The notes under the pieces are model-generated. The model had not been told where the DNA came from. It searched no databases and saw nothing but the letters and a program-made list of their open reading frames with translations. Positions 12,921 through 61,477 of a DNA stretch of 64,000 nt are shown piece after piece (within the stretch, counting starts at the first letter, position 1; each line of letters opens with the position of its first letter). The stretch covers positions 21,650,038 through 21,714,037 of the forward strand of contig CM119269.1 in NCBI GenBank assembly GCA_051294375.1, in the 5' to 3' direction. Source of the DNA: Paraspadella gotoi. Taxonomy: Eukaryota > Animalia > Chaetognatha. Made by a program: the position numbers and the translations under genes.

Positions 12921-13235
<315 letters not shown>

Positions 13236-13263
13236 TTATAATATATGGCAGGTAATATGGCCT

Positions 13264-13515
13264 TATATGAAATTGGTACAACCAATATAAAAATTATTCA
13301 ATCATTTAATAATTAAGCTATCTTGCCCCTGACTTTGGACAGGCTTTGGTGGTTTAAGGCCTCCATCACTCTTACAAAAAAATGACATATCAATCAAGAC
13401 TCTCTCACAGTCTCTTTTATTCACTCCCAGAGTACCTGACTTCCCTATCAATGAAGTGTTATTATGTTTCAAAGAATGTTTCATTTGTATGAAAAGACCA
13501 TTCCCTTAATTATTA
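13264..13515. repeat. Unclassified dispersed repeat; pieces also at 10620-10755, 27300-27480, 34790-34895 (inverted), 35310-35368, 42300-42430, 49925-50055
   Basis: Shared gaaattggtacaaccaatataaaaatta, ggcctccatcactctta and gactctctcacagtctc...tatcgat blocks. Confidence 0.65.
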
Positions 13516-13539
13516 GATTAGAATTAGATTTTATAAAAG

Positions 13540-13717
13540 ATGGCATCTGATTTTCAAAGAAATGGCAAAGGCAGATGAGACGGCATCTGATTTTCAAAGA
13601 AATGGCAAAGGCATATGAGACGGCATCTGATTTTCAAAGAAATGGCAAAGGCAGATGAGACGGCATCTGATTTTCAAAGAAATGGCGAAGGCAGATGAGA
13701 CGGCATCTGATTTTCAG
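13540..13717. repeat. 40-bp tandem repeat, ~4.5 copies
   Basis: Unit ggcatctgattttcaaagaaatggcaaaggcagatgagac. Confidence 0.95.
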
Positions 13718-14306
13718 ATGAGAAGGGATTTGAGTCGTAAATCCGCTGAGATTTATTTCCGGTTAATAGGATCACAGTGGGAAATCTTCCAACCCTTTCG
13801 GCCGACACCCACGTCGCCCCCTTGGACCCTCCTCTCTTTTTTTGAAAAGGAAAATGGCTTCTTCCTTTTTTCTTCTTCTTTTTATCTTTCTTTTCCATTT
13901 TGTCTCACCGATTTCAAGACTCACTCACTCACTCTGTGATTTCTTTACTGATAAATTCAGTCCGTCGATCGATTCTCGCTTCTCATTTACTCATTCTTCC
14001 CCCTTCCCCACTTTTTTGGACTCTTCCTCTCAAATTTTAAATTTAAATTTTAGATATTATATATTTAATATTATTTTTTTATCTTTTTAAGATTCAATTT
14101 TCTTTTCGTCTGGCATATATACATTTTCATTTTCATTTTTCTAACGAATAGGCCAAATGCCTACTCATTTATCAAAAATATGGGGAAATTGAATGAACAC
14201 CTTCTGACTTGTAATTATATTTTATATATTTTATATAAAGACTCCAAAACAAGACAGTTTTCTTGCCGAAAAACAGTTTTCTCACCCAAAAAAACAGTTT
14301 TCTTAC

Positions 14307-14452
14307 CTGACAGGAATCTTTCCCTCCTGCCTCCAATCCCGCGCATAAATTACTGTCCCAAACTCTTCCTTTGTAAAATTTATACGTGTTGCATTTCGTT
14401 GGACCGAAAACTGGAAGCGTCACTTCTTGCAGAGACGTTGGAAGTTCGCCAT
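14307..14452 (-). CDS. Serine protease exon
   Basis: (Y)GELPTSLQEVTLPVFGPTKCNTYKFYKGRVWDSNLCAGLEAGGKDSCQ|gtaaga; Asp in the S1 pocket (DSCQ) implies trypsin-type specificity. Confidence 0.92.
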
Positions 14453-14518
14453 CTGGCGGGGCAAAGATAAACGAGAGAGAAGGAGAGAGAGAGAGAGAGA
14501 GAGAGAGAAGAGAGCGAG

Positions 14519-14554
<36 letters not shown>

Positions 14555-15314
14555 ATGGATATCAAAATAAAACGCGAAGAAGAAAAAAGGAGAAAGAAAG
14601 TGAAAAAAAGCAAAGGATTATAATTTTTTCTTTATAGAAATTTTAAAAGAGAAGACAAATAGGCACTATTTTTAAAAAAGGCCCCATTTTTGTTACTAAT
14701 TCCTAAATTTAACCCTATTTTTTTTCTAATTATTTAATCTAATCTCAAACCTTAATCCTTCACCCTATTTTTTTTAATCTATTGCCTAACCCTTACCCTT
14801 AACCAAATCCTTAAACATAAAAATAGATTTAATTCTGAAATTAAGATTGGTCGCTTTAGGAAAAGATGGCCGACAGATTTATAGTGAGTTTCACTTGAAT
14901 GATTACAATTGAAAAAGTGAAAAAGTTTGTTCCATTTTTTCTTCTTTTTAAAAAAAAATAGTTTTCCTCTCTTTTTCTCATTTTAGAGTCTTGATGGAAT
15001 TACGAGCTGAATGCCTCTCTCTCTCTCTCTCTNNNNNNNNNNAGAGAGAGAGAAAGGAAATAAGAAAGAAAGAAAACACTCTCTCTCAAAAAAGAAGAGA
15101 ATTTGAAGTTTGAGGAAGAAAAGAAGAGAGAGAACAAGACAGGTTCGCCATTGTCTTAATGGAAAGTCATTGTTCCATTTGGACCAAATCTATAAATCCT
15201 AAAGAATTCCGTTTCGATCCGTCTTCATCTTTTTGCAACAAAACAGAGAAGAACGAGGATAGAGAATGAGAGGATGAGAGAGAGACAGAGACACCGTCTC
15301 AAAAACAATGTCTT

Positions 15315-15390
<76 letters not shown>

Positions 15391-15524
15391 AAGACGAACA
15401 GTGATTGAGTGAGTGAATGAATGGGTGAAAAAGAGAGAGACAGAGTAAAACAGAGAGAGAGTGTGTGAATAAACGTAACATAGATAAAGAGAGACAAGAG
15501 TCAGACAGAGATAGAGACACTCAC

Positions 15525-15651
15525 AGTCTCTGAGTCTCCCCCACCCGGCGACTTTGCATTGCATCTCTTGGAATTGATCGTCGACGTTTGGAAGACAAAT
15601 TGAGTTGACGGTCAAATCCTTTGTAGGCAGCGCCCCTATCGGAGAATCTAG
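15525..15651 (-). CDS. Serine protease exon
   Basis: ttacag|LDSPIGALPTKDLTVNSICLPNVDDQFQEMQCKVAGWGRLRD T|gtgagt; phase 0/1. Confidence 0.92.
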
Positions 15652-17506
15652 CTGTAATGTGGTAGGAAAAACGAAATAGCAATTAAATGTCAGGCAGAGA
15701 GATTTCAAAAAATTGCTTGTTTTAAAATTATTTTTTTTCAAGATATAAATAATGATTAAGGATAGGCATATGAAATATTTTTTAAATACAGAGGTTAAAT
15801 CTTGCTTTCACGAAAAAAACCCTCATATTATTCATATTTAAAATAAAACTGATATATAAATTTGATATTTAACTATTTGTTTTTTTGATAACGCCTAGTC
15901 AAATATTTTGAAAAATAAATAATTTTTCTGTTTTCATAGCAAAAGTTTTCCAACTTTCAGGTGAGACTCTTTCGCAATATTATTACTTTGTGTTGCGTCG
16001 CAGTGATTTTATTTTCACGTGATATGACATGACTTTCTTTTCCTGTGTATTTATGACATGCACTGCATCAAAATTCCGTCTTTTATTCCTTATAGTTTTA
16101 GGAATTCTTGAAGGCGGCGCTAGCAGTCACTTAGATTTGATGTTTTTTTCTGTCTTAACAAATGAGCAACCAACTATAGGCAAATTATATGCATTTTAAC
16201 GTGAGTGTGTATGTGGATTCGATCTCGAGATATCCACATGTAGATTTAATATTTGACATCTTGGCACAGAGAAAGGACAGAATAGGATTGAGTTACATAG
16301 ACAGAGCCGGTCTAAAAGGTGAATAACTGGAAGCAGCCCTGACGGTTGAGGATGGAATCTGCCGATTTCTGATGACTTTAAAGAAAACAAAAGACGTTCA
16401 AATAAAGGGTAAAAGATGCCATTTAAATATTGGCTGACTTCTAGAATCTGATTTGTAATAAATGCCCGGTGGCGATATCGATAAAGGTGATGTATCATGA
16501 CCAATGAGTCCCGGGTTCGACACTCGATGATGAGACACTATTTATAGATGTTAATCGAAGATTCTATGGCTCTGGATTAATTATTTTATTATAAAAATTA
16601 TATTAATTTTGTTTCCAAGGGATTGGAGCTACAAGTGGGACAGACCGACGGACCGACATACCGACGGGCCGAACGACCCGCGGACCGACCGACCGAGTAC
16701 TCGCTGCGCAACTAAAAACGAAATTGTCTCAAAATCTTTGAATAGGAATTACCAGTATATATCTTCCTGAAGTTAATATCCTCTCTCCGTCTCTATCTAT
16801 CTTTCAAAAAACTCTCTCTCTCTCTCTTTCCTCTCTCTCTCTCTCTCTCTCTCTATCTCTTCAAAGGTCCATGACCTTCTTCTCCGCCACGGAAACCCAT
16901 TTCCGGTTTGGGCGTGGCGCAAAGCGAAAGTGTGAATCGAGTCAAATCCTCTTTTACGCTTTCACCAACCCATAAAAATTTTCTTCACTGTGAACGAAAT
17001 TTCGCGGTGAACTCTTTAATCTTTATCGGGCTTACCTTGAGGCGTTAGCGCGGTGTGAAGATATTTATTTTTTTTTTGTAAAATTAGAAATTAAAATTGG
17101 TTTTCAAATTATAATTTTTATTTTAAATTCTATTAATATTTAAAAATATTAAATAGAATTTTTAAATAATTTTTTAAATAATTAAATTAATAACCATTTA
17201 TCCTTATTAGAAATATGTTTTTTATTAAATTCAGATATTCATTTTAAAATATGTAAAAAGTATTTTTTCAGATCATTTTGTTTAAAAATTAAATATCATA
17301 ATTCAAAATTTTTCTAAATAATATTTATTATTTATAGATTTTTTTTATAATTATGATTCTTAACCTCATTCATAATTTTCAAAGCCGTTTTCAATTTTAA
17401 AAAGTAATACTTTTGCATTTCCTTCTTTATTTCTTTTTTTAAAAATGTTTATGTAATTCTATTTATATTGATAAGATTAGATCGAGTTTCTACTATTAAT
17501 TATATA

Positions 17507-17632
<126 letters not shown>

Positions 17633-18211
17633 TAGGAAAAAAGTATATGACATAATTCATTTATTCAATAAAAAGTATAAAAAACATGGGTAAAACATCA
17701 TGATGACATTCTCAATATTTGGTATACCCTTCCACGGCATCAACTACTGCCTGCCTTTGTCTGGGTATGCTCTTATACAGCAAATTGAGGTATGACAGTA
17801 AAATGTTTTTCGAGATCTTTAACGCAATTCTGCGCAGCCCCGATATTAATGTTGCGCATCTTTCCCTCTTTTCTGAGAGCGATAATAATAGTTTTTTGAA
17901 CCAGAAAGAGGTGCAAGGCCTTTAGCATTGCCAAATTAAAAAATAGTTAAAAAATAACTAACTCTATTTAAAATAAAAACAAATAACTAAATACCAAAAA
18001 TGGTGGAAAATAAAATACTTTTTTTTCACCATTTTTCATTTGAAGTAAAAATAGTTATTTGCCTGTAACTTCTAAACGATTAGTCAAAAAAAGGAAGCTA
18101 CTGAAAGGAAATTCAATATAGATTCGGAAACATTCTTTTTTTTTTTTAAATTAAATAAGTTTTCTAGTAGATATCTTTTATTAAAAATGTCATATTTAAA
18201 ATTAAACTTAC

Positions 18212-18362
18212 TTTAACGAGAGCGATATCGTTCCTGTTCATATAAGGGTCGTAATTCTCATGAACAATAAGTTTTTCAACTTTTCTCCAAATTTCTGTTC
18301 CTTCATCTGCGACCAAATCGTGTTCAGCGAGAAGGACCTTCCAGTTGGATGGCTTGTTGAAT
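18212..18362 (-). CDS. Serine protease exon with catalytic Asp
   Basis: FNKPSNWKVLLAEHDL...VEKLIVHENYDPYMNRNDIALVK|gtaagt; phase 2/0. Confidence 0.92.
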
Positions 18363-18363
18363 C

Positions 18364-18412
<49 letters not shown>

Positions 18413-18539
18413 GAAAAATAGCGGGAGCATTCAAATAATACATTTTCATCGTCGTGCAAACTCCCAGAAAAGCTCTTTCAGCGAAAAACAAAGTGCACAA
18501 TACCCCTCCATCCCCCTGGCTATTTTCCCCCTTCCTGAC

Positions 18540-18765
18540 CCCAAAAAGCAATGCGCCGCTGTGAGGACGAAGCTGGGATGAATCACAGCTCCACCGCATT
18601 GGTGCTCGTCGATTCCGTAGTCGGCGTCTTCGACCCACAATGACGCCAACCACGGGAATTCGTGTGGGCGCGCCTCCACGCCACCCACAATCTTGTCCGG
18701 TGCATCTCGTGGCCGGTTGTTGGTGATACCATCCGGACAGCTGGCAGGATTTCTGAATGAGTCGG
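18540..18765 (-). CDS. Trypsin-like (S1A) serine protease, exon with activation site and catalytic His
   Basis: ...DK|IVGGVEARPHEFPWLASL...HQCGGAVIHPSFVLTAAHCFLG, then a gtcagg donor; acceptor either at 18766 or 18753. Confidence 0.92.
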
Positions 18766-18838
18766 CTGAAGCGAGGTAGTAAGATAGATCCGCGGGAAGG
18801 AATGTCATCTCTCTCTTCTCTCTCTCTCTCCTCTTCTC

Positions 18839-29880: not shown

Positions 29881-29963
<83 letters not shown>

Positions 29964-30047
29964 GTTTCAAAAATTCAATTAGCTTTCTCACCGAAGGTTA
30001 CCATGCAATTTAGATAATTAAAGAGAGAGAAGAGAGAGGAGAGAGAG

Positions 30048-30096
<49 letters not shown>

Positions 30097-31344: not shown

Positions 31345-34038
31345 CGCGCTATACTGCGATATGCTGCGATTCGCGAATGAGATACTGCGATGCGGTGAGA
31401 TGAGAAGTAGGGGCATCGCGAATAAATGCTGTAAACTGTGTTGGCGTGATCGTGCCGTGGCCAGTGGCACTCTGGATTGGTGAACATGTGCTGCTGGAAT
31501 CTTTAGCTGCTACCGTGAATGTATAAAGGGTTTTAAATGACAGACTAGATAAAAAAAACTGTTTAACAATTATGCCTTAGAACGTATCAAGATATCCGGA
31601 TTACTTAAATATTCTGGGATGCTACAATAAAGCGCGATGCATTAGAAAGCGAATTTCGAAAAGTCGAATCGGCATGCGAGCATGGCATGGTAATATCTTG
31701 GCAAAAAAGTCACGGTGAAAGTGACGCAATTCAATCCCTATTGCTACCTATTCAAGTTATTGTAAAACGCATAAGCAATAATTATCAACTTTTTAAAAAA
31801 CTAAACCACGTGAGTAATTATTAGTCGAACTTTTACTATTTCCTATTTACTTATCTTTTTATTTCTGAATTAGATATTTTTTTCCTCAATCAAAAACTTT
31901 TTAAATCATTCAGTTAGTTTCAAGACTTAGCTTATTAACATTTGGTTATGATGCTAATTTATTATGGCGGTTGTTTTTTTTTTTTTTTTTTTTTTGCGAT
32001 CCACACCAAATCTCATTTCAAAATTTGTTGCCAAAAATTAGTCTTTATTTTCAACATAGAGATGATCTTTGTAATACATGATTATGTATTAATATTGCCA
32101 TAAACTTTTTGATTTTATATAGCACGCTGAGTACACGGATTTCAGAATGGAGAACAAAATCATCATTGAAACTGTAGCTCTAATAGTTATTAATTTTTTA
32201 TTAAATTTGTTTAATTCTCTTATCTTTTTTTTAATTAAATTACTGGTGATTTTTTTTGCTGAATAATTTTATTAGTAAATGTAACAAAGATAAAAAATTC
32301 TCATCAAAATGTATTTATGTCGGTAAGATATTCCTAGCTAAATCTTACAATACCCCAGACTAAAATCCGCGTAGATCGTCAATGCCTAAAATTGAAAAAA
32401 AAACAAAAACAATATCATGAATCATTTTGTTTTATTACTTATTATGTTTTCTTTTAAAAAAACATTCATTTCTTTCAATACAAAGCTTAGTTTTTGTTTT
32501 AATACCTTTATTGTAATACTTTCCCCCGCACGTACTATTAGACGAAATGTTGCAATCGATTCTAGGGTAATAGGTTTTATGCAAATCATTTGTTCGTTGC
32601 TAATAAATCATTTTTTTGAATTATTTTTACATGAACATTCGTTTCCTCACGACAACATGACTTCTTCCGCCTCAACTGGGTCTAACTACATCAACCCCGT
32701 CCAACCCCATCAGACTCGCCACAGTCCAGCAGCAAAAGTGAATCTCATTCACAATTGTTTTGTTTCACGCGAAGCAAGAAAATCACTTGTGAACTTTTTA
32801 CGATTAGACTTCATGACAAAAAAAAAATTCGGCTCATATTTCACGTATCATATTGTACGCTGCATTGTTGAATATATTTTAATCTACGTTCAAATTCATA
32901 TAGAAAATAATAAAGAAAATTGTCTATTATAGTTTGAAGGTTATTGATGGCAAAGGTTATGTAGTTCTTTGTTTAATAATAATTTAAATAGTTTGAAGTT
33001 ATTCCCAAAATTTGATGGCGAAAAAACAATTAGTGTCAGAATAAGTAGTTAAGTACTCAAATAAATTTTTTTTGTTGCTAGTATAACAAAAAACAATTAA
33101 AATTAACAAATATTTTTTTTTAAATAAATTTAATTAAAAAAAATTACACGAGGGAAAAAAAGTGTTAGCGATTTAAGGGTAACAAAGTCAATGAATCAGT
33201 GAAAATCAGTGAAAAGTCAGTGAAAGAATCTTTAGTGAAATCTTGCAGTGACTTGCTTTGAATTTATCTTGTACTATAAGTAGATGGAGGCTTTCGGCTT
33301 AATTAACCATAGCCAAGTCAGTTATTGAATGAATATAAAATTTTTAAGTTTGTTGTACCAATTTAACACAAATTTCGGGCATTCAAGCCGAATTCATTGA
33401 TTATGATAATGGGTTTGAGTCAGTGTAATGGTGTGTTAGCATGTATAATTAACTCCGACTTTCCACTCAATTGCTTGATTCACATCTTGCCTCAATCGTG
33501 TGTCCCGAGTTCAATCCCAGAGAATCCTGATTTTATCATAAATGTAACCAGCCGCGACATGGGGCGGACACTGAAAAACCTCTGCCCTCTTCGCCCCGGG
33601 TTTTCACTGGCGATGTCTCGCCAAAAGGAAATCAATCGAGAAAAATAACAACAACAACAATAACAACAACCGATCGAGTCACGATTTCCATGAGATTTGA
33701 TTTTCTGGTCGAAGGCTGATTTAATGGGACGCTGCCGCTGCCGCTGCCCTCCCCGACGCCGCCGCAGCCGAGCTGGAGGGTGTTGAGGAAAGTCAAGCAG
33801 CGGAATCCGTTTTTGATTTTATTCATGAATCGATTGTTTTTTAGCCCAAGAAAGAATAAAAAAACTGATATCTGGAGGAAAGGAAAAAAATGAGAAGGAA
33901 AAAAAAGGAAAGGGAAAGTTAAAGAGAGAAAGATAAAGGGAAAAAGAGGGAAAAAATAGAAGATAATATCCCATTTTTAAGGGGACAGAAGATAAGAAAA
34001 AAAAAAAGAAAGAAGGAACCAATAATTCTGAAGGATGA

Positions 34039-34084
34039 ACTAGTCTCTTTGGAGGCGTGGGTTCGAATCCCACCGCTGTCACCA
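34039..34084 (+). pseudogene. 3' half of tRNA-Leu (long variable arm) ending in CCA
   Basis: ACTAGTCTCTTTGGAGGCGTGGGTTCGAATCCCACCGCTGTCA-CCA: variable arm, T arm and 3' acceptor strand of a eukaryotic tRNA-Leu; no 5' half upstream. Confidence 0.8.
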
Positions 34085-34531
34085 CAAATAAGTAAGTAGA
34101 CAGGGATTTCGAGACGAAATCTAAGTGAATTTTATACCTTCAGAAAATTGATCATAATAGAAGACGGTGTCAATTCTTGGGGCAGAGTGAATCAATACAG
34201 GTTTGAGTTCCAATTCCTACAGATACATCGGATCGCAGGTCATGGTAAAAATCACCGGCGGATGGAAGCCCATCCGATCATTGGCCAGTTCCATTTGTCT
34301 CTTGACCAATGAGAATGTTCCATTCTTCTTCCGGCGGATTTCACCCGAGTCGTTGATCCGATTTAGATTATGGAGTCTTGATTCCTCTGCGATTAGATTG
34401 TCATCACAAATGGTCGGTCGGTCGATGTGAGAAATCACGTGAGAACCACGAAAAGGATCATATTTAGATAATTTTATGATACTTATAAATTACATGTCGT
34501 CAAATATTCTGGGAAATAATAAAATAAACAG

Positions 34532-34780
34532 TTATGGCGGACTAAAATCCACCAACCGTCCATCAGCGGACATTGGTGCCGGAGGCAAGTCATTCGCCTC
34601 CCAACCCAAAGGTCCGGGGTTCTAACCCGTTGGTCGCCTCGCAGTTACGAGGGACGTAGCGCTTAACCCGCCAGTAACACGGTGTTACAGCTTGATCCAA
34701 AGCTCAGGGACTGATTATATTGAACGGTTCTGTCACTAATACATAACCATAATTACTGTCTCTTCACAGTGTTATTAATT
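34532..34780 (+). mobile_element. Second independent copy of the tRNA-twister repeat (twister ~34641-34715, partly mutated)
   Basis: Same modules; P1 hexamer AGCGCT; substitutions in T1, P3 and P4. Confidence 0.78.
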
Positions 34781-35368
34781 TATTTTTTAAAGGATGGAGG
34801 CCCTAACCTATCTAGGCCTGTTGAAAGTCAAGGGCAAGATAGCTTATTTTTTGAACGAATGGCTAATTTTTGTAGTATTAGTTGTACCAATTTCAACCTC
34901 GGTCTTTGAGCTACCAAAAGATAAAAATTCTACGACAGTAAGTAATTATTAAATAGCTGGATAGCTTGATTTTGCACTGCTCTATTAAAATCGAGTTAAC
35001 ACTTGCTGTGTAGCTAAATTAACAGATATTTTGCCAATTATGATTATGAAAGATAGAGATATAAAAATACGTAGAAAAAAGGGGAAAAAATTTAACGGCA
35101 CCATTTCCCTAAACTTGTACCAAAAGTTTAATAACCAAACCTCGCCCTCATTCTTAACCTTTACGTAATCCTCACCCCTACTATCATTCCTAATCCTAAT
35201 CTTTAACCAAATCTCAAAGTAATTACCTAACCGAATCCTTATCCCTAATCCTTATCCCTAATCCTTATCCCTAATCCTTAAAAAGCTAATGAAAAAACAG
35301 TAATTATTGTTATATGAAATTGGTACAACCAATATAAAAATTATCCATTCATTTAATAAATAAGCTAT

Positions 35369-35590
35369 TATGGTGGACTAAAATCCACCAACCGTTCATC
35401 AGCGGCCATTGGTGCCGGAGGCAAGTCATTCGCCTCCCAACCCAAAGGTCCGGGGTTCTAGCCCGGTGGTCGTCTGGCAGTTAAGAGGGACGGGGCGCTT
35501 AACCCGCCTGTAACATGGTGTTACAGCCTGATCCGAAGCTCAGGGACTACTTACAATGAACGGTTCTGTCATTACCACTTATCAATAATT
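35369..35590 (+). mobile_element. tRNA-headed, twister-ribozyme-containing dispersed repeat (best copy)
   Basis: 5' hairpin TGGTGGA-ctaaaa-TCCACCA; tRNA-like module 35402-35473 (acceptor GCGGCCA/TGGTCGY, CTCCCAA loop, AGGTC variable loop, GGTTCTAGCC B-box-like T arm); twister-like module 35476-35551. Confidence 0.8.
35476..35551 (+). ncRNA. Type-P5 twister ribozyme-like motif; predicted cleavage U35500/A35501
   Basis: GG-GA-CGG..UAA-CCC-GC-C[UGUAAC/GUUACA]G-CCUGA-UCCGAAGC-UCAGG; T1 CCG/CGG, T2 GC/GC; P5 gcagtt/gact.c closes the ends. Confidence 0.8.
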
Positions 35591-35601
35591 ANNNNNNNNN
35601 N

Positions 35602-38960: not shown

Positions 38961-41689
38961 CTGGGCACGAAGTCATTGGGGAACAATCCAGTGAACCTGG
39001 CAATCCTTCGAAAACTTTTGGACAACTATCCCATCAAGTGAGTAAGCTATGACTCCTTTCGACTTGGAAGACGGATGACTTACGAATAGATAGCGAGCAA
39101 ATTATATGGCTCCGGTTTTTCTGATCATCTGCATTCCTCATTTTTATATTGTAATCTTTTTTCTATAATAAGTAATGCCGCCCACAATCTCGGTGCCCCC
39201 TTTATAACACAGAAAGTACAGTTTTAATAATCTGGGTGATAGCAGATGCTTAGCAACAAACCAAACGTAATCAAAGAATTCTTTATATACATCTAGAAAT
39301 TGATTAAGTATATAAATTGGACTTTTCAAGTCCGCTGCCGAGCTTGATTAGAGTCAGACGCCTCGTACGCATCAAGTACCTGCTTATTATCGATGAAGTG
39401 GTATAATATTACAAAAACTGTTTCATTCGCATAAACAGACGACACTCTCCATCAACAGTAATGTATGTAATATTCGTAAATGACGTAACACAGAATCCTT
39501 TATTGCCAAGACGGCCCACACGGGAAACGACCGGACCACGAAAACACTGGCGCAGCTGGCACTGAATTACACGTCGCCAAGCTGAGTCTTTATTAACGCA
39601 TATGATCATGCAGCGTTGTCGAAGGCTATCAACGGCATTCTGGACTATGACAAAACTTTGCTGCATAGGCAGCGACTCTTTTGGTGCCCAAACACACTTT
39701 ATCAAATTCATTCGGACACGAGCAGAGTTGATGCGTACAGCCGCGCCTCTTTCCGGCAGCGCGACTCTGCGGGGGGGATGAGGCCGCAGCTACCCTCGAC
39801 CTCGCTCTCTGCTTTTCCCCAACGGCCACGCATGACCTCAGACGCTCAGATCCAATTGGTTTTTCTTCGTCCCGCCGCGCTCTCACGGATTTCTTCCGGT
39901 CCGTGGCAGAGCCACAAAGAAGACAACAACCAAACTTCACCTTTTCATCCCTGCTACACATCGTTTTGCTCCTCACCGCTCTGTATCAATTATTCTATTA
40001 ACCTTTATATCATTGTCATTGCCAGTCCGCATAAAACCTGTTCTTTACACCCTATGTCGTCGATCTTCTAGCAATTAACTTTGGTTTTGATGGTGGACTA
40101 AAATCAACCAACCGCCTTAGCAGCGCGGCCAATCTGGTGGCGGAGGAGCACATCTCATATTGCCTCCCCACTCAAACAGGTCCGAGGGTTCTTAGCCCGG
40201 TGGTCACCTAGCAGTTAGAGGGACAGGTGGCTACAAAGCCTGATTCCGAAAGACTCAGGGACTGCTTATATTGACACGGTTACTATCACTAACATATAAC
40301 AATCATATTACTGGTCTCTTACAAGCTTTGATTAATTCCTATCAGCTTATTTGGCTTTGTATAGTATGAATAAAACAAATCTATCACTATTTTGTCTACT
40401 GACATTCCTAATCTTGATTACTAATTTTCCATAAATGTCTAATTGGTCTAAATCTGATCAAAATAGATCACAACGGTGGCTGATCTGCGAACAGTACGGC
40501 ACCACCTTTGAACTGTCCAAGAAACAAAGTTTTAGGCAAAACAGATACAATTCCCGAAGATAAACTAAGTTTGAGCAAAGAATCGCCGAACTGGCCACGA
40601 TCATTAGCGGTAAGTCTGAATTAATTAATCTAGTTAAGCTGAATTACATTAAATTCGAAATCCCGCGACATTCTTTTTTCGGCTCCTTTTTCATCAACTG
40701 ACGCGACACAAAAAAAAGCAATCGACGACCGTCTGATAGGCGCAAACGACGACAACTAATCGCCGAATAACGATTAATGGTGATTGGCATTACTTGATTA
40801 ACATTGATTGATTGATTCGATTGATTAGATTTGATTAAATAACTAATTAATCACTGATTGAAATTCATATGAATTGAATATGACTTGAACTAATACTAAT
40901 TATTGATTCTAGTTAATAATTAATTGATTTATTAATTGAAAGAATTTAATTAATTGAAATTAGTTGAAAATTATGTTGACTAATATGAATTAAATTAACT
41001 GATCCTAACACTATTTGACGTAATTAATATATTTCGCAATTACATCTTAATATGAACAAGAAACAGCATAATCAATATAGTGAAAAAGGTTTTTTTGTTT
41101 TTTTCATTTAAACTCATTATCACACTCCAGACGAAATTCCAGTCGACAACTCCTGAATTCATCAGCTTACATTTCAAGTGCAACTAGCCGCCCTTATACC
41201 TACGAGTAAAGTATGGCTTATCAAAGCTCACAGCGGGGATGACGACGGACGGGACGCGGACGGACCGGAGAGAGCGGACAGTCCGTCTTTTTTTTTTTGC
41301 ATAATTTAATACATTGCGAAAAAGCTTTCTTTCTTTTCAGTTGAGTTTCAGATACCAGAAAATAAACGACGCACAGTCATTTTCAACAACCGATTATGAA
41401 TTTTCTATTTATGAGCAGAAACATCGTTTCAGCGTTTCCATCAGCCCAGCCAAAATCGCGCCACTGATGAAGGCTTCGCATGAACAAGCCGAACCATAGG
41501 TCCCTGTATCAAAATCAAATAGTGTAAAAAAAAACCAAAAATTGCAAAATCATAGAACATGTTATTCTGACTTTCAAGAAACAATAGTTACATATGTTAA
41601 ACCCATTTATTTTTCTTATTTTGTTATTAATATCTCCACCAGAGAGACAATGACCCTTCCCCCACCTCCTCCCCCCACTCCTTTCACAG

Positions 41690-42052
41690 ACCGCCAACGT
41701 CTCACGCTTTCACGGTTTCCACGTTCACACTCACGGCGACATCTTCACCGACGGATGTCACTCCGCCGGCGGTCACTTCAACCCGGACAAAAAACATCAC
41801 GGTTCACGTGATAACAAACACGACGAACGTCACGTGGGTGATTGGGGCAACATCGAGGTTCGTCCCGACGGCACGGTCACCGCCCAATTCGAGGACGATC
41901 TGGCGCGGCTGGTCGGGTCCAAGGGCGTTTTGGGCCGGGCCATCGTGATCCACGCGGGGCAGGACGATCTCGGACGTGGGGGCAACGCAGGGTCCAAAGC
42001 GTCGGGAAACGCGGGACAGAGACTCGCATGTTGCGTCATCGTGGCAGCTTGA
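41690..42052 (+). CDS. Cu/Zn superoxide dismutase exon 2 (intact copy)
   Basis: cacag|TANVSRFHGFHVHTHGD...GCHSAGGHFNP..HHG...RHVGDWGNI...GRAIVIHAGQDDLGRGG...SGNAGQRLACCVIVAA*; Cu/Zn ligands, the disulfide Cys pair and the active-site Arg are present. Confidence 0.93.
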   Translation, partial: TANVSRFHGFHVHTHGDIFTDGCHSAGGHFNPDKKHHGSRDNKHDERHVGDWGNIEVRPDGTVTAQFEDDLARLVGSKGVLGRAIVIHAGQDDLGRGGNAGSKASGNAGQRLACCVIVAA

Positions 42053-44230: not shown

Positions 44231-47200
44231 CTTTGTCTTCGTTTCCTGACATAATTTATCATATTTTTTGTTCTGACATGATTTAAGTCACATACCGGCA
44301 AGCTTTTGGGTTGGGACCGACGGACCGACAAAGGTGAATTATAGTAGCCGAGATCTGCTGAAGCAAGTTCCGGCTAAAAACAGATAATTTTTTTAATTTT
44401 GTGATCCTAACAGATCATGCCATTAACTAACCAAACTTGAATCATTTTTTTAATTTGCATCATTTTTTTAACTCAAATGATTTTTCAACTGCATTATTTT
44501 TTAAATTCACACATTTTTTAACTGCATCATATTTTTAACTCAAATCTTTTTCACACTCGGATCATTTAAACTCTGACGTTTAACATGCCATTCATTTTTT
44601 ACACTTCGACATTACTTATACCAAATTGCTACTGTCATTTTTTTAACTTGCATCATTTTTACAAATTGCATCATTTTTTTCACTTTAAATTAATTAAGTC
44701 GAGCATTTTTGATTAAGCAATAAATAATAAAAATTAGTCAATTTTTTTTTATGCAAACTCATTTTCACTCCTTCATTCCATCTAAACTATATATCCTGCT
44801 CAATCTCACACTTTCCTACCACACACAAATTATTTCATCTTAATCTATCCATAACACAATTAGTGATTCTAAATCCATCGATTAATTATAGGTTAAAATT
44901 AATAACAATACAAAAGATTTTAGTAAAATGTGACTTATGTTTCCTTCAATAAACCCTACATTTTTACTATCCAAACCTTTATTATTCAGCTCAATCACAC
45001 ACCTTCTCCTAAGCCACAACACAAAAGAATTTCATCTCAATCCATCCATCCAATACACGCAGCTACTCTCTCTCTTNNNNNNNNNNNNNNNNNNNNNNNN
45101 NACGAAATCTAAGTGAATGTCGAAGACGGTTACATTGTTCAATTCTGGGCGGAGAGTGGACAATCACAGGTTGAGTTCCAATTCCTAGCAGTACATCGGA
45201 TCGCAGCTTCATGGGTTAAAAATCCCGCGGATGGAAGCCATCCATCATTGGCCAGTTCATTTGTTCGCTTGACAATGGAGAATGTTCCATTCTTCTTCCG
45301 GCGGATTTCACCCAGAGTCAGTTGATCCGAATTTAGATATGGACAGTCTTGAATTCCTCTTTCGATTAGATTTGCATCACACACTGGCTCGCGTCGGTCC
45401 TGATGTTGAGGAAATCAACGTGACAAACACGAAAAAGATCATATTTATGATTAATTTATGATACTTATAATACATCGTCGTAATATTCTTGGGATCAATA
45501 AAATAACGAGTTATGGCGGACTAAAAAATCCACCAACCTGTCCACCACGGAATTGGTGCCGGAGGCAATCATTCGGCTCCCAATCCAAAGGTCTGGGCAT
45601 TTTAGCCCCGTGGTGGTCGCCCTCTCGGCATTACGGGACGTAGCGCTTTTAACCCGCCTATGTTTAACGGTGTTACAGCTTGATCAAAGCTCAGGACTGA
45701 TTATTAAACGGTTTCTGTCACTCAATAGCATACCTAATTTACTGTCTGTTCCACATGTTATTAATTTATTTTAAAGGATAGGAGCCACGAACCTTATCCT
45801 AGGCCTGTTGAGTCAGGTCAAGATAGCTTATTTTTGGAACGAACATGGCTATTTTTTGTATTTATGATGTACCAATTTCACTGGTTCTTTGAGCTACCAA
45901 AATTAAAGAAAATTCTACACGGCTATCAGTAATTATAAATAGCTGGTACTAGCTTGATTTTGCAGCTGCTCTATTAAAATCGAGTTAACTATTGCTGTGT
46001 AGCATAAATTAACGTATTTTGGCCAATTAATGGATTATGAAAATAGAATATAAAAATATAGATAAAAAGGGGAAAAAATTTAACGGCACCATTTCCCTAA
46101 ACTGTTACTCAAAAGTTTAAATAACCAAACCTCGCCTCATTTCTTAACATTTATCGTAATCCTCACCCTACTTCATTCTATCCTACATCTATTAACCAAT
46201 CTCAGTAATTATCCTTAACGAATCCTGTATCCCAATCCTTATCGGTTTACCCTAATCGCGTTATCCCTAATCCTTAAAAAGCTAATGAAAAAACAGTATA
46301 TTATTTTTATATGAATTTGACAACATAGTAAAAATTATCATTCATCTTAATAAATAAGCTATATGGTGGACTAAAATCCACAACACGTTCCATATCACGA
46401 GGCCCCATTTGGTGCCGGAGGCAAGTCATTCGGCTCCCAACCCAAAGTCCGGTGGCCACTATATGAGCTGTTAGGGTGGCTGACGGAAAATATTCACAGT
46501 GGGCTCCGCTTATCGAGGCCAGAACGACTTTACACTATATGAGCTAGTAGGTGGATGACGGAAAATAGTTCACAGGCCTCGCTAGTAGATTTTGATGTAG
46601 ATTTGTAGATTTTGTCCGCCATACTAACTTAATTCCTTTATTAAACAAAATATGTCAACTTTTAAAAATTATGGCCCAAATTTTCCATGAAAGTGCAGTG
46701 GAGATGAGATAAAGGCAAGATTCAGGGAAATCTAATTATAGAATTAATTCTTAACTTAACTTTAATTTTCCTTCTTAATCTTTAACTAAAATTCAAAATT
46801 AATTTCGAATTTTGGAGATAAATATGATTTTTTGGTAAGGAATAAGGCCCAATCGCGTGGGTCTGTGAGGCTATCGGTTCTGACCTGACCGGAACTGTTC
46901 TGAGCAGTTTAAGCTATCATTACAAGTAAGACCTTTGGGAGAAGCAATTATTTTCGAATCTCGAGTCGACATTTCCGATTTTAACGACAAAACAAAAAGA
47001 TTTTAGTTTTTATGTTAGTCACGATTTTTATTAGCATTTGTCACTTCTAGTATTTTCCTGTTGCTTCGATTAGAACTGACGTCAAACATGGACCGCCTAG
47101 GGTCAGACTTCTGCAAGTCGCCCCACTTTGTCTACCTGCTCCTAAAGATAGCAAGAATAAGGACGGAGAAGAAACTAACTCCATAGTTTACCTGCGTACA

Positions 47201-48229: not shown

Positions 48230-49670
48230 ATGACTCCAATAATCGCTCAATTTTTGGGATTCCAGCATCGCGATCAATCGATTGATCGTCGCCGTCATCG
48301 TTCTCGCAGTTCGATCGTCCAGATGGCTGACAACGATTCTGCCACCAGAATGCATCTTGCATGTGGGCCAGTAATCAAGCAATAAGCGGACATGCAAAAC
48401 GCGCCGAGATAATCCGATCAAAGCAAGCGAGATCACTGAAGAGTCGGACCATCGGCTCAACAAAGTTCGCCGTCAATCTTAATGGGTTCAAGGTGGGAAG
48501 TGGGGAAGAGATTGAAAATGAGGATTAACTTGGGAAGAGATGAAAATTGGGATTAAAATTGGGGAGCAGATTGAAAATTGGATTAAATTGGGAGAGATTG
48601 AAAATTGGAATAAATGGGAGAGATGAAATATGGATTAATTGGGAAAGATTGAAGAATTGGGAATAAGTGGAAGATTGGAATTGAATTAAATTGGAGAATT
48701 GAGAATTGGGGATTAAATTGGGGAAGAATTGAGAATTGGAATTTAAATTGGAGAGATTGAGAATTGGAATAAAATGGGGAAGCAGATTGAAAAATTGATT
48801 AAATTGGGAAGAGATGAAATTGGATTAAATTGGTGAGAGATGAGAATTGGATTAATTGGAGAGAGTGAAAAATGGTATTAAATTGACGGAGAGATTGAGA
48901 ATTGAGGTATTAAATTGGGGAAGAGATTGAAAATGGGATTTAAATTGGGAAGAGATTGAGTACAATTGGATGAATGGGAGAGATTGAGAATTGGAAATTA
49001 AATGGGAAGAGATTGAAAATTGGAATTAAATTGGTAGAGAGTGAGAATTGGGATGTTAAATGGGGAAGAGATTGAAAATTTGATTGAAATTGAAATTGAA
49101 TTAAATTTTTCTTTGATAGAATTAAAGTTTTAAAAAAAAACCACAAAGATTGCAAAATCACTAAGAACATATTATATCTGACATTTCAGAAACAATATTA
49201 CATATTGTGTAACCATTGTATTTTTCTTATTTGTTTATTGAGATTATCGTCCACACGAGAGACAATGACCGGCTTCGCCCACTCCTCCCCGCGATCCTTT
49301 CAGCAGACCCAACGTCTCACGCTGTCACGGTTTCACGTTCACACTTCACGGCGACATCTTCACCTGACGGATGTCACTCCCCGGCGGGTCATTCAACTCG
49401 GACAAAAAATCACGGTTCACGTGGATAAACGAACACGACGACGGTTCACATGGCGTGATTGGGCCAACATCGGTTCGTCCGACCGGCCGGTCACCGCATT
49501 CGAGACGATCTGGGCGCGGCTCTGGTCGGTCCACAGAGGCGTTTTGGGCCGGAGCCCATCGTGATCACGCGGGGCACGGACGATCTCGGACGTGGGGGCA
49601 CGCCAGGTTCCAAACGTCGGGAAACGGACAGAGAACTCCGCCATGTTCGCGTCTCCGCTGCCGCCCTTGA
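48230..49670 (+). pseudogene. Frameshifted copy of both SOD exons inside the duplicated block 45102-~52200
   Basis: 48230-48493 matches exon 1 and 49307-49670 matches exon 2, with many 1-nt indels; flanks also duplicate 34113-37560 and 41530-45075. Confidence 0.75.
48495..49100. repeat. ~28-30 bp minisatellite (aattgggattaaattggggaagagattgaa) in the SOD intron; also 37541-38140
   Basis: Directly visible tandem units. Confidence 0.9.
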
Positions 49671-56919: not shown

Positions 56920-57145
56920 GATCCATTGGGGATCGATCTCGGTACAATTGGGGATCATTTTCGGTACAATTGGGGATCGATCACGGTACAATTGGGGATC
57001 AATCTCGGTACAATTGGGGATCAATATCGGTAAAATTGGGGATCAATATCGGTACAATTGGGGATCGATCTTGGTACCATTGGGGATCGATCTCGGTACA
57101 ATTTGGGATCGATCGTGGTACCATTGGGGAACGATCTCGGTACCT
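56920..57145. repeat. ~22-bp minisatellite x10
   Basis: ggggatcgatctcggtacaatt units, no spacers. Confidence 0.92.
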
Positions 57146-57350
57146 TATGGTCATGAGTTGATGTTACTACTCAATGAGCCACCGGGTCACCACTGAAGGT
57201 TTTATTCTTATATGCGGGGTGAACTTATTTCAATGCCCGACTAAAAATATAGTCGCCGGAATGTAGCGTTGTAAAGTTGAGAATCGGCAAATCAAACCTT
57301 TACAATAAATACACTAAAATACAATTAAAATCAGCACAAAAAAAAATCAC

Positions 57351-57585: not shown

Positions 57586-57761
57586 CTGGTTTCAATTTTC
57601 ATTTCATTTCACTTCATTTTTTTTTATTATTTTTTTTTCATCTTCGACGATTAAATGAATAATTGATTAACTCAACTTATTTAGTTATTTACAGCAACAG
57701 AAACAACACCAAAACCAACAACTACGACATCGAAAAAACTCCCATCAACAACATCAACTAC

Positions 57762-57912
57762 CGGTGGGAGATCATCGTCGGCCCTGATGAAAGTCCCCCT
57801 CCTGTACAGCACCAGCAACAGCACGATGATGAAGACGGTGACGACGAGAATTCCGCCGACGATGAAGTAAAGGACGATCTCGATGTTGAAGGCGAGGACC
57901 GGGGAAAGGGGT
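57762..57912 (-). CDS. Transmembrane exon
   Basis: (R)PLSPVLAFNIEIVLYFIVGGILVVTVFIIVLLLVLYRRGTFIRADDDLPP|gtagtt; hydrophobic helix followed by RR stop-transfer. Confidence 0.8.
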
Positions 57913-60036: not shown

Positions 60037-60362
60037 CTGGGGAAAGNNNNNNNNNNNNNNNNNNNNNNGGGGGAAATGACATGAAATGAATGATTGAAGG
60101 AAAGAATCAATAAATGAATGAATAAATATATAAATAAATACATGAATGAAAGAATGAATGAATGAAAAAAACTAAAAATCGAACGAAAGAAGCAAAAGAA
60201 CGAACGAGCCAAAGAACAAAAGAACAAACTTATCAGCAGATTCCGACTCTATAATTCACTTTGTCGGAACGTCGGTCCCACCCCCCAATCTTGTCGGGCA
60301 TTCACTTATATCATGTCAGAACATCAAATTATGATAAATTATGCTTTAGAGCCCTGCTGATT

Positions 60363-60445
60363 CACACAAGTAAAAGCGGGACGGGGCGTCTAACCCACCT
60401 GTAGTGAAGGACTACAGCCCGATCCGAAGTTCGGGACCTTGTGTG
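60363..60445 (+). ncRNA. Divergent type-P5 twister ribozyme-like motif without tRNA head; predicted cleavage U60391/A60392
   Basis: P5 CACACAAG/CUUGUGUG; GG-GA-CGG; GGCGUC; UAA-CCC-AC; P3 CUGUAGU/ACUACAG; P4 CCCGA/UCGGG; L4 UCCGAAGU. Confidence 0.85.
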
Positions 60446-61477
60446 CAACGGACGGTGAACTGCTCGCGGCATCGTCTTCCACAAGATTCGATATAATTAA
60501 CCATCTGATTCGCTGCTTACCGCTAAATTATCGTGGGCAGTTCCGACATTGTTTGCTCAAACTTGTTTCTTATCTTTTTTTCCGCTTCTTTCCGTTTCTT
60601 TCCGCTTCTTTTCGCTTCTTTTTGCTTCTAAATCACTGAATCTTTATCTTCTCCCTGAATCGACTGAATCTTCTCGGTGAATCTCTTTAACTCATTAAAT
60701 CTTTATCTTTTCTCTCAGATTTTCTTTGTTAAATGTCTTAGATGAATCTTTTAGATGAATCTCTTTGATGAATCCCTTCATAAATCTCTTTGATGAATCT
60801 CTTCATAAATCTCATTGATGAATCTCTTCATAAATCTTCTCTCGTGAATCTTGATCTCTTCTCTGAATCTCTGAATCTCCTCCGTGAATCTCCTCACATC
60901 GCCAAATCTCCTCACCTCATTACTTTCCCCTTCACTTGGCCGAATCTCTAAGTCTCACAGACGCCAACGCTTCATTGCCTTCTCTTGCAGTTCACTCATC
61001 ATTCTGGTTGATGCCGTTCATCGACATCTAGATTCTTTGAAGGAAAACATTTCACTCCTTTTCATAACAACACTTCTTTCACTTCTTATGATGCTTTTAC
61101 ATCTTTCACATCTTTCACTTCTTTCACTTTTTATAATTCTTTCACTTTTTTCACTTTTAATAAATTCTTTCACTTCTTTTAGCTTCTGTCACTTCTTGCA
61201 TTAATTGAAATGAGTGAAAAAGCATTTCTATCACTACTTTCACATATTTCACTCCTTTCTCACCCTTAACTCATTCACACTTTTCTAATCCATCTCATCT
61301 CACTTTCCCCCCCCCCACCTATTTCACGTCCTCCCCTCCTCACTTTCACTTTTCGACTCTTTAAATAAAAACTTCCTCGCGATATTAAATAATTAATCCG
61401 GTTATAATTCGAATTGTTAGCCAATCAACTTGCCAATCTTTTTATATTTTTATCCTTTTTGATGTATAAATTTACAA

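Follow-up and report, generated by a model that had tools for sequence, protein, structure and literature searches.

Twisters are widespread ribozymes for which, to our knowledge, a single role has been proposed in animals, the 5′ processing of RTE elements. In the RTE element Perere-3 of Schistosoma mansoni, they are of type P1 and lie at the extreme 5′ end of a coding long interspersed nuclear element, with target-site duplications at the cut (PMC8501958). Penelope-like elements carry minimal hammerheads with a palindromic short stem that are thought to cleave as dimers, and Sm-alpha, a repeat of Schistosoma resembling a short interspersed nuclear element (SINE), places a self-cleaving hammerhead inside a repeat of the RNA polymerase III type (PMC6765202). 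Kojima expects a ribozyme behind a SINE head to truncate the element (PMC5786205). Here we describe a type-P5 twister-like fold at positions 60363 to 60445 of a 64,000-nucleotide stretch of DNA from the chaetognath Paraspadella gotoi (GenBank assembly GCA_051294375.1, contig CM119269.1, positions 21,650,038 to 21,714,037, forward strand; hereafter the window, whose numbering is used throughout). The copy is a 5′-truncated, typical member of a homogeneous repeat family (family B), sister to another family of the window (family A). Our preferred explanation, held tentatively and at somewhat less than an even chance, is that the fold belongs to a tRNA-headed retroposon and would cut between U60391 and A60392 slowly when alone and efficiently when two copies pair through a palindromic P1. 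The parts of the fold are as follows.

60363 to 60445, plus strand: type-P5 twister-like ribozyme fold of family B, called from its core elements against the Rfam consensus and from covariation
60385 to 60390, plus strand: P1 region of six self-complementary bases, forming one pair and a four-base loop alone and a 6-bp helix between two copies
60391 to 60392, plus strand: predicted cleavage site U/A, placed by the twister consensus position
60399 to 60417, plus strand: P3 stem and loop
60418 to 60435, plus strand: P4 and its loop L4, whose eight bases, UCCGAAGU, fit U-nnn-A-A-nn

Read 5′ to 3′, the order is P5 strand, UAAAA junction, P2 strand, G60380-A-CGG, six bases, U/AA, CCC, AC, P3, P4, and P5 strand, and all core elements map one-to-one onto the Rfam type-P5 consensus in the type-P5 order. 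They also correspond, with the order permuted, to those of published Schistosoma twisters (PMC8501958). Pairing is complete in P5 (60363-70/60438-45; 8/8 Watson-Crick), P3 (60399-405/60411-17; 7/7 pairs), and P4 (60418-22/60431-35; 5/5 pairs), as well as in the pseudoknots T1 (60382-84/60424-26, CGG/CCG; 3/3 Watson-Crick) and T2 (60397-98/60429-30, AC/GU; 2/2 Watson-Crick). P2 (60376, 78, and 79 with 60394-96) consists of 2 bp, a bulged C60377, and 1 bp; the bulge had been predicted in a first-pass annotation of this DNA and was seen at that place. A folding model that omits pseudoknots gives the P2 pairs a probability of 0.01 to 0.02. The general-base motif of type P5, G-A-nnn, is present as G60380 and A60381 followed by the T1 bases CGG, with G60380 as the predicted general base. 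The N/AA cleavage strand ahead of P2 is likewise present (U60391 A60392 A60393), and a position check placed the cut already predicted between U60391 and A60392 at the twister cleavage position. Folding of the 83 bases gave a z of −2.7 and recovered P5, P3, and P4. The minus strand folds equally well, but the core motifs are missing there. The pattern GGGACGG-N(2-12)-TAACC occurs twice in the window against 0.03 expected.

With the Rfam type-P5 family RF02684 (clan CL00120), the fold shares strand order, G-A-nnn, U/AA, P2, P4, the eight-base L4, and both pseudoknots. It differs in having six palindromic P1 bases instead of a hairpin of 4 to 10 bp, CGG/CCG in T1, AC/GU in T2, a bulged P2, and a P3, and it has no Rfam match. 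L4 closes on A60422-U60431 and not on G-C, a departure from the near-invariant closing pair of type-P5 twisters; this G-C pair is described as essentially invariant in twisters (PMC5408937). The fold thus falls short of strict twister tests at P1, the L4-closing pair, and the Rfam score. From its sequence, we nevertheless take it to be a genuine twister-type fold. A second GGACGG, identical to the catalytic strand, stands at 60450-60455 in a stem behind the fold and is perhaps a trace of the duplication behind the permuted order. A type-P1 reading through this second motif was rejected; it has no P1 and one P2 pair and lies inside the tail stem.

The compensatory changes come from comparison with the family A copy at 35476. 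The two copies differ at 15 of 60 aligned columns; four pairs are altered on both sides (one in T2, two in P3, and one in P4), and none of 21 pairs is broken. When changes were placed at random with the same transition bias, 39 of 500,000 placements reached four double changes without a broken pair, for a structure that had been drawn on the same sequences under guidance of the twister consensus. In an alignment of four complete copies, 8 of 500 shuffles reached four double changes and slid controls gave 0 to 2, all four double changes stemming from the single copy at 60363. These results bear out the first-pass proposal of a twister-type fold with real compensatory changes, its pairings lying where they had been placed and none being broken. 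Covariation had been claimed for four helices and holds for P3, P4, and T2. It does not hold for P5, where the helix as a whole, not column by column, has been exchanged for one that differs in length and register; P5 of the 35476 copy itself contains a C.A mismatch. The core had also been called invariant, which is true between the 60363 and 35476 copies only, T1 being broken in two of the four complete aligned copies.

Three core departures (T2, the L4-closing pair, and T1) each appear to be tolerated when compensated, because the matching swaps in the double-mutant matrix of the rice twister Osa-1-4 keep activity: relative activities are 0.89 for T2 G13A/C31U, 0.85 for L4-closing G23A/C32U, and 0.86 for T1 C27G/G47C, while most single changes are near dead (PMC5113685; values from columns counted by hand in the text of the supplement PDF). 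P1, P2, and P4 tolerated imperfections in a survey of natural twisters, whereas the pseudoknots and the catalytic bases did not (PMC11662667); this copy has no flaw of the latter kind. As no untolerated flaw was found and each core swap is tolerated, in vitro cleavage is likely, and we judge it probable that this twister-type fold would cleave in vitro in some form. A structured twister descendant that no longer cleaves, its pairings kept for folding or enzyme recognition, would agree with the missing Rfam match, with the absence of copies starting at the cut site among the contig ends listed (below), and with the combination here of three core substitutions, a short P1, and a bulged P2. It would also agree with the L4-closing pair, as 0 of 58 phage loci matching an A-U pattern passed, against 58 of 89 loci with G-C. 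We consider such a descendant very unlikely, because families A, B, and C (family C being a third twister-like family of the window) all retain the catalytic G, the adjacent A, U/AA, and both pseudoknots, with three different T1/T2 combinations, and each substitution is tolerated when compensated.

To place the copy, public contigs of the same organism were used from seven DNA-type runs of three studies, one of which may be the window's own source. The family B insert and the element around it comprise the following segments.

60229 to 60344, plus strand: left end of a DINE-1/HINE-like host element, with an inverted repeat (60241-47/60263-69) and a 9-base subterminal repeat at 60262
60345 to 60348, no strand assigned: four bases of neither element, from the sequence against the element boundaries
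60349 to 60362, plus strand: remnant of a tRNA-like head (end of B box/T arm and 3′ acceptor strand) with the 5′ truncation point, from loose ends before 60351
60446 to 60484, plus strand: 39-base tail of the family, ending sharply and predicted to form a stem-loop (60450-60477), from contig ends at 60482-84 and folding
60485 to 60568, plus strand: right end of the same host, with a subterminal repeat (60540-48) and a short palindrome (60551-62)

Between 126 and 376 contigs per run aligned over 60346-60495. At the 3′ end, 24 to 57 contigs per run stop at 60482-84 and have unrelated flanks (flank agreement, ∼0.42). Upstream of 60351, 10 to 16 contigs per run continue into a tRNA-like head that is identical over 16 bases to the anticodon arm of the family A head at 35402 and contains a GGTTCG B box; the family B head is known from 30 bases before 60351 only. 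Family B is thus very probably tRNA-headed, and the window copy keeps the last ∼14 bases of the head, with the A box and half of the B box lost. When contig depth is summed over 60351-60484, it reaches some hundreds to about two thousand times that of a single contig, a figure that is not a copy number. Against the family majority, the window copy has two listed differences, at 60408 (P3 loop) and 60457 (tail), and family variants at paired positions are all at ∼3% or less. Variants at 60382, 60386, and 60418 keep pairing; those at 60426, 60429, and 60396 and rarer P3 changes do not.

The first-pass annotation had described a standalone, divergent copy with no tRNA head. The contigs contradict all three points, as they reveal a dispersed and homogeneous family, other copies of which carry the head and from whose majority this copy departs at just the two listed places. 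The further suggestion that a second element family carries the ribozyme proved correct: family B is sister to family A and has a tRNA-like head of that kind. A standalone headless twister in an unrelated second element family would be consistent with the absence of any further copy of the family B tail or P5 within the window, and with one contig type (runs X1 and X3) that has only the last 59 bases, 60426-60484, in common with family B and other sequence upstream. It is nonetheless highly improbable, since the tRNA-like head is the best-supported 5′ continuation wherever one is shown (six of the seven runs list it) and the final bases of the head survive in the window copy. The contig type with the shared end could possibly represent a partner element with the same tail.

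P5 appears to have been replaced more than once. Loose ends before 60374 (7 contigs, one run) and behind 60432 (4 to 6 contigs, 4/4 runs) are complementary at 7 of 7 bases and probably constitute a third P5 version; we infer that the two sets are joined in one element. A minority of family B 3′ ends (4 to 5 contigs in 3/4 runs) enter sequence resembling the host subterminal repeat, and the minority 3′ flanks could reflect a target preference. Other minority 3′ ends enter A/T-rich sequence starting with TC, which we take to be similar to a Helitron 5′ end.

As in tRNA-derived SINEs, a tRNA-related head with A and B boxes is present, judged from the family A heads and, in family B, from the 30 bases before 60351, and family B has many dispersed copies with a common 3′ end; it differs from them in having no poly-A or simple-repeat tail and no target-site duplication here. 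A retroelement setting, similar L2, P2, and P3 motifs, and an imperfect P1 are shared with the Perere-3 twisters (PMC8501958), whereas the fold here is permuted, internal, and placed behind a tRNA-like head, with no copies starting at the cut site among those listed. With the Penelope-like minimal hammerheads and animal retrozymes, it has in common a palindromic stem and a short tail after the ribozyme (PMC6765202, PMC7761336); it departs from them in ribozyme class, tRNA-like head, dispersed single copies with no tandem seen, and the lack of a coding partner among the sequences found. Sm-alpha is alike in being an RNA polymerase III-type repeat with an internal self-cleaving ribozyme, but it carries a hammerhead and spreads from tandem arrays (PMC6765202), while family B carries a twister. 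Tails of 30 to 40 bp are a Penelope/Naiad trait, and Naiad insertions are without canonical hammerheads (PMC8557442). The 39-base tail of family B after P5 fits this trait, a weak and unspecific likeness.

The insert lies within another mobile element. Sequence matching 60229-60344 at 81 to 92% was found at four other window sites, with sharp loose ends at 60229 and 60344 in 4/4 runs, and three longer window copies (683 to 991 bases) hold both host ends in the same order and on the same strand. The host copy here is 340 bases long, its middle lost and the family B piece in its place. When the host was compared with DINE-1/HINE, subterminal inverted repeats, a 3′ palindrome, an internal microsatellite, and high copy number were all found. 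The described elements likewise have inverted and subterminal repeats, a short palindrome, and a GTCC-type microsatellite (PMC4067079); the host's subterminal repeat is 9 bases rather than the 12 to 15 described, and the likeness concerns the landing site and not the ribozyme family. The GTCC-type microsatellite is present in the longer window copies, and the host element is far more abundant than family B. Inverted 8-mers shared by host and insert were within chance and were set aside. The locus had been placed between Helentron-like fragments; the flanks are Helentron-like, but they are the two ends of one element with the insert inside.

This arrangement raises the alternative that the tRNA-twister module is cargo spread as DNA by Helentron-type elements, with the ribozyme a hitchhiker from an older retroposon that need not act now. 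The copy does lie inside a DINE-1-like element whose middle is lost (340 against 683 to 991 bases), Helentrons capture sequence (PMC4067079), some 3′ ends enter host-like repeat, neither target-site duplication nor poly-A is present, and family A has a leader hairpin, a subterminal inverted repeat, internal deletions, and a broken T1. Most family B 3′ flanks, however, are unrelated to each other and to the host (∼0.42), and the host left end is not what precedes 60351 in other family B copies. Because those copies mostly have other flanks, the DINE-1-like element is better read as a landing site. The family B core is also intact, with variants at ∼3% or less, and P5 has been renewed two or three times as a fully paired helix, a pattern that requires selection acting on RNA. 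Helentron-borne dispersal as DNA seems improbable as a general account, and it suits family A better than family B. We regard family B as likely to be a non-autonomous retroposon family, and spread through RNA as rather probable.

The copy had also been placed antisense in an intron of an immunoglobulin (Ig)-like gene. A minus-strand gene does fit, with splice donors and a transmembrane exon, but the Ig-like assignment has no Pfam, PDB, or Atlas support for the host exon. Between 57761 and 62979 (minus strand) lie exons of a type-I membrane protein assigned to no family, comprising extracellular exons, a Ser/Thr-rich stalk, and the transmembrane exon (57761-57911). Within the truncated copy, the acceptor strand left without its partner (60354-59) is predicted to pair into the ribozyme: the probability of P5 falls from 1.0 in the 83-mer to 0.20 once the head remnant and tail are included. 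The view that this is the best candidate for activity thus survives for the excised 83-mer only; in place, the A box and half of the B box are lost, the copy is antisense to the host gene, and a misfold is predicted. It is probably a silent fossil whose promoter is gone.

The P1 region, which the first-pass annotation did not single out, sets this fold apart. A descriptor scan found three intact cores in the window (35489, 60380, and 13367 on the minus strand), each with six bases between T1 and the cut, and the six-mer is self-complementary in all three and in the A2 variant; a first, looser scan also gave four A/T-rich hits, against 0 to 6 per shuffled window. In family B, the commonest listed P1 variant, 60386 G>A (2 to 3%, 4/4 runs), makes the palindrome perfect. 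By comparison, all 69 distinct phage type-P5 twisters have 14 to 25 bases and 4 to 10 bp in the P1 region and none has 4 to 13 bases, in a scan that allowed P1 regions of 4 to 24 bases. P2 has 2 contiguous pairs here against 3 to 5 in 69/69 of them. All six phage P5 twisters that were tested pass Rfam. Nearest-neighbor energies put the native nested monomer at −23.6 kcal/mol and a misfold at −31.0, so that the native form lies 7.4 kcal/mol above the slipped fold. A strand-swapped dimer at −61.7 is about level with two slipped monomers (2 × −31.0), and the unconstrained two-strand optimum, at −72.9, exchanges strands symmetrically in P5, P2, and the palindrome.

Under the preferred explanation, the internal promoter of the tRNA type would drive transcription of full-length copies, giving an RNA of ∼200 bases, and G60380 and A60392 would carry out the twister acid-base chemistry. 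The weak P1 and bulged P2 would keep a lone transcript mostly uncut, so that it could be reverse transcribed with its head, and paired copies (from tandems, read-through, or abundant RNA) would be cut, by analogy with the Penelope-like hammerheads and Sm-alpha. Something must restrain the cutter, because an intact twister and a head coexist in spite of the truncation expected by Kojima. A cutter that is slow alone and fast when paired would resolve this coexistence. Strong dimer dependence of cleavage, as a separate claim, comes close to an even chance without reaching it.

Several results weigh against this reading. Neither this copy nor the 3′ loose-end consensus has a poly-A or simple-repeat tail, no target-site duplication surrounds the insert in the window, and a crude motif scan of the window gave no reverse transcriptase or GIY-YIG remnant. 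The 8 joints listed include no head-to-tail joint of family B, and no cluster of loose ends lies at 60392 in the 24 rows listed. On the ribozyme itself, an Rfam scan gave no twister match at 60363 even at E up to 10, and each of the three tolerated substitutions was measured on its own, in another scaffold. As to the dimer, the energy models leave pseudoknots out, the optimum for two strands of the family A copy exchanges P3 and not P1, and two degenerate copies (50665 and 34790) have non-palindromic six-mers. Selection on the outer pairs explains two of the three palindrome pairs, and the central pair would arise by chance at ∼0.38 per lineage, with two lineages concerned; the central pair alone needs a dimer as its explanation.

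The same retroposon could instead carry an ordinary monomeric twister with a vestigial P1 of one pair and a tetraloop, the palindrome being a by-product; either P5, P2, and T1 would keep the cut halves together, or copying would be confined to uncut RNA. One pair with a four-base loop can span the cut site, and all other core elements are present. A twister lacking P1 cleaves near the wild-type rate (PMC5408937), and P1 imperfections did not lower cleavage in the survey of natural twisters (PMC11662667); as P1 is reported dispensable, no dimer is needed. Every P5-stem twister in one survey cleaved above 0.8, a small sample in which P5 is an internal stem. Such a monomer would have to form a native P1 and P2 at +3.8 kcal/mol against −3.6 for the slipped helix, and it would have to do so with two contiguous P2 pairs where the phage twisters have more. 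The six-mer has also stayed fully self-complementary in three lineages, and a fast internal cutter behind a SINE head is expected to cause 5′ truncation (PMC5786205), whereas copies with a head and an intact core are common. We regard the monomer as unlikely, though worth serious consideration.

A literature search that left most subscription papers outside its scope gave no tRNA-headed twister element and no dimeric natural twister, and the present setting, a tRNA-headed repeat with a palindromic P1, was not found in the literature searched. The sequences may already be listed in the supplement of the largest survey, which covers crustaceans among other invertebrates (PMC11662667). If the dimer-dependent retroposon is correct, twisters and hammerheads would have converged on the same dimer switch in mobile elements, and a mobile element would harbor a self-cutting RNA at its center. 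Ribozymes of this kind are probably undercounted in invertebrate repeats, since the fold escapes Rfam. As for the machinery, a Penelope-like partner is doubtful, with a Naiad-type reverse transcriptase as a lead for the mobilizing partner. More speculatively, a radiation of tRNA-headed retroelements (A, B, and probably a third) might have borrowed an obligate-dimer twister from Penelope-like (Naiad) terminal repeats, forming a SINE-like class that a Penelope-type enzyme mobilizes; the palindromic P1 would then serve as a copy counter, leaving lone transcripts intact and cutting those that are paired. We consider this scenario improbable.

The related families provide natural T1, T2, P3, and P5 variants ready-made. 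Their members in the window are as follows.

35368 to 35591, plus strand: family A copy with a leader hairpin, a tRNA-Gly(CCC)-like pseudogene (35402-35474), and a twister-like fold (35477-35550)
35368-35591, 34524-34790, 43174, 50557, 45511, 46354, and 40090, plus strand, and 35744-35602, minus strand: the eight family A copies in the window
13326 to 13374, minus strand: family C twister-like core without P3 and with a six-base palindromic P1 (Rfam Twister-P5, 25.8 bits against a cutoff of 37.6)
34790-34850, 45780-45830, and 33280-33330, plus strand: worn family C copies

A 35-base hairpin leader stands upstream of the tRNA-like part in all eight family A copies, which represent about four independent insertions. 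The family has a 9- to 10-base subterminal inverted repeat, so that it is laid out like a HINE element of the minus strand. Internal deletions affect three of the copies, one of which has lost the entire ribozyme. ARAGORN read the heads as a tRNA pseudogene in one register in 4/4 copies at 80% of its threshold and in 0/4 at 90%, relaxed thresholds being noisy (162 calls at 70%), and made no tRNA call on them at its default threshold, nor did Rfam. An Rfam scan matched neither twister nor tRNA at 35360, and it gave no tRNA match at 60363 either. In a variant found at 34646-34710 and 45632-45697, T1 is broken at two pairs but the P1 six-mer has become fully palindromic; these two copies have flanks in common and probably arose by duplication of a single insertion. 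Family A also forms a tail-to-tail pair (35360/35744) and abuts family C twice, and this inverted pair and these contacts recall Penelope/Naiad insertions (PMC8557442); for family B, the contig joints listed include no partial tandems or adjacent inverted copies.

The family C core at 13326-13374 was found again by a model built from families A and B. Its L4 is closed by G-C, its T1 is UGG/CCA, and its tail is present at several window sites; the copy at 33280 seems to have a longer P1 region. The family is a candidate terminal repeat of the autonomous partner. The core sits in sense orientation within an intron of a trypsin-like gene, and exons of a trypsin-like serine protease extend over ∼12990-18800 (minus strand; Pfam PF00089 on 18446-18784).

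Outside the window, scans with family patterns gave 19 loci (viral, 2; metagenome, 6; prokaryote, 11), of which 18 lack a P4 of at least three pairs. The remaining locus, L014, which passed, and L245, the passing member of 28 loci in a further scan, lie inside long open frames and were dropped as chance. Further pattern scans passed 0 of 120 and 0 of 58 loci, and phage records held no match to the family. Arrays of type-P5 twisters, with three to five members spaced by a few hundred bases, are present on several phage contigs (L219, L214, L152, and others).

Other features of the window include a Cu/Zn superoxide dismutase exon at 41654-42052 (plus strand; Pfam PF00080) with a frameshifted duplicate at ∼49100-49564 (plus strand), and diverged local duplications link the regions around 40000, 43100, and 50500 and those around 34500 and 45500. 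A tRNA-like T-arm and acceptor fragment with a weak match to the tmRNA model lies at 34050-34085 (plus strand), and at ∼57100-57200 (minus strand) a tRNA-like head is followed by a tandem array of ∼20-base units. A long hairpin at 29903-30093, with subthreshold matches to several microRNA models, is probably a fold-back repeat.
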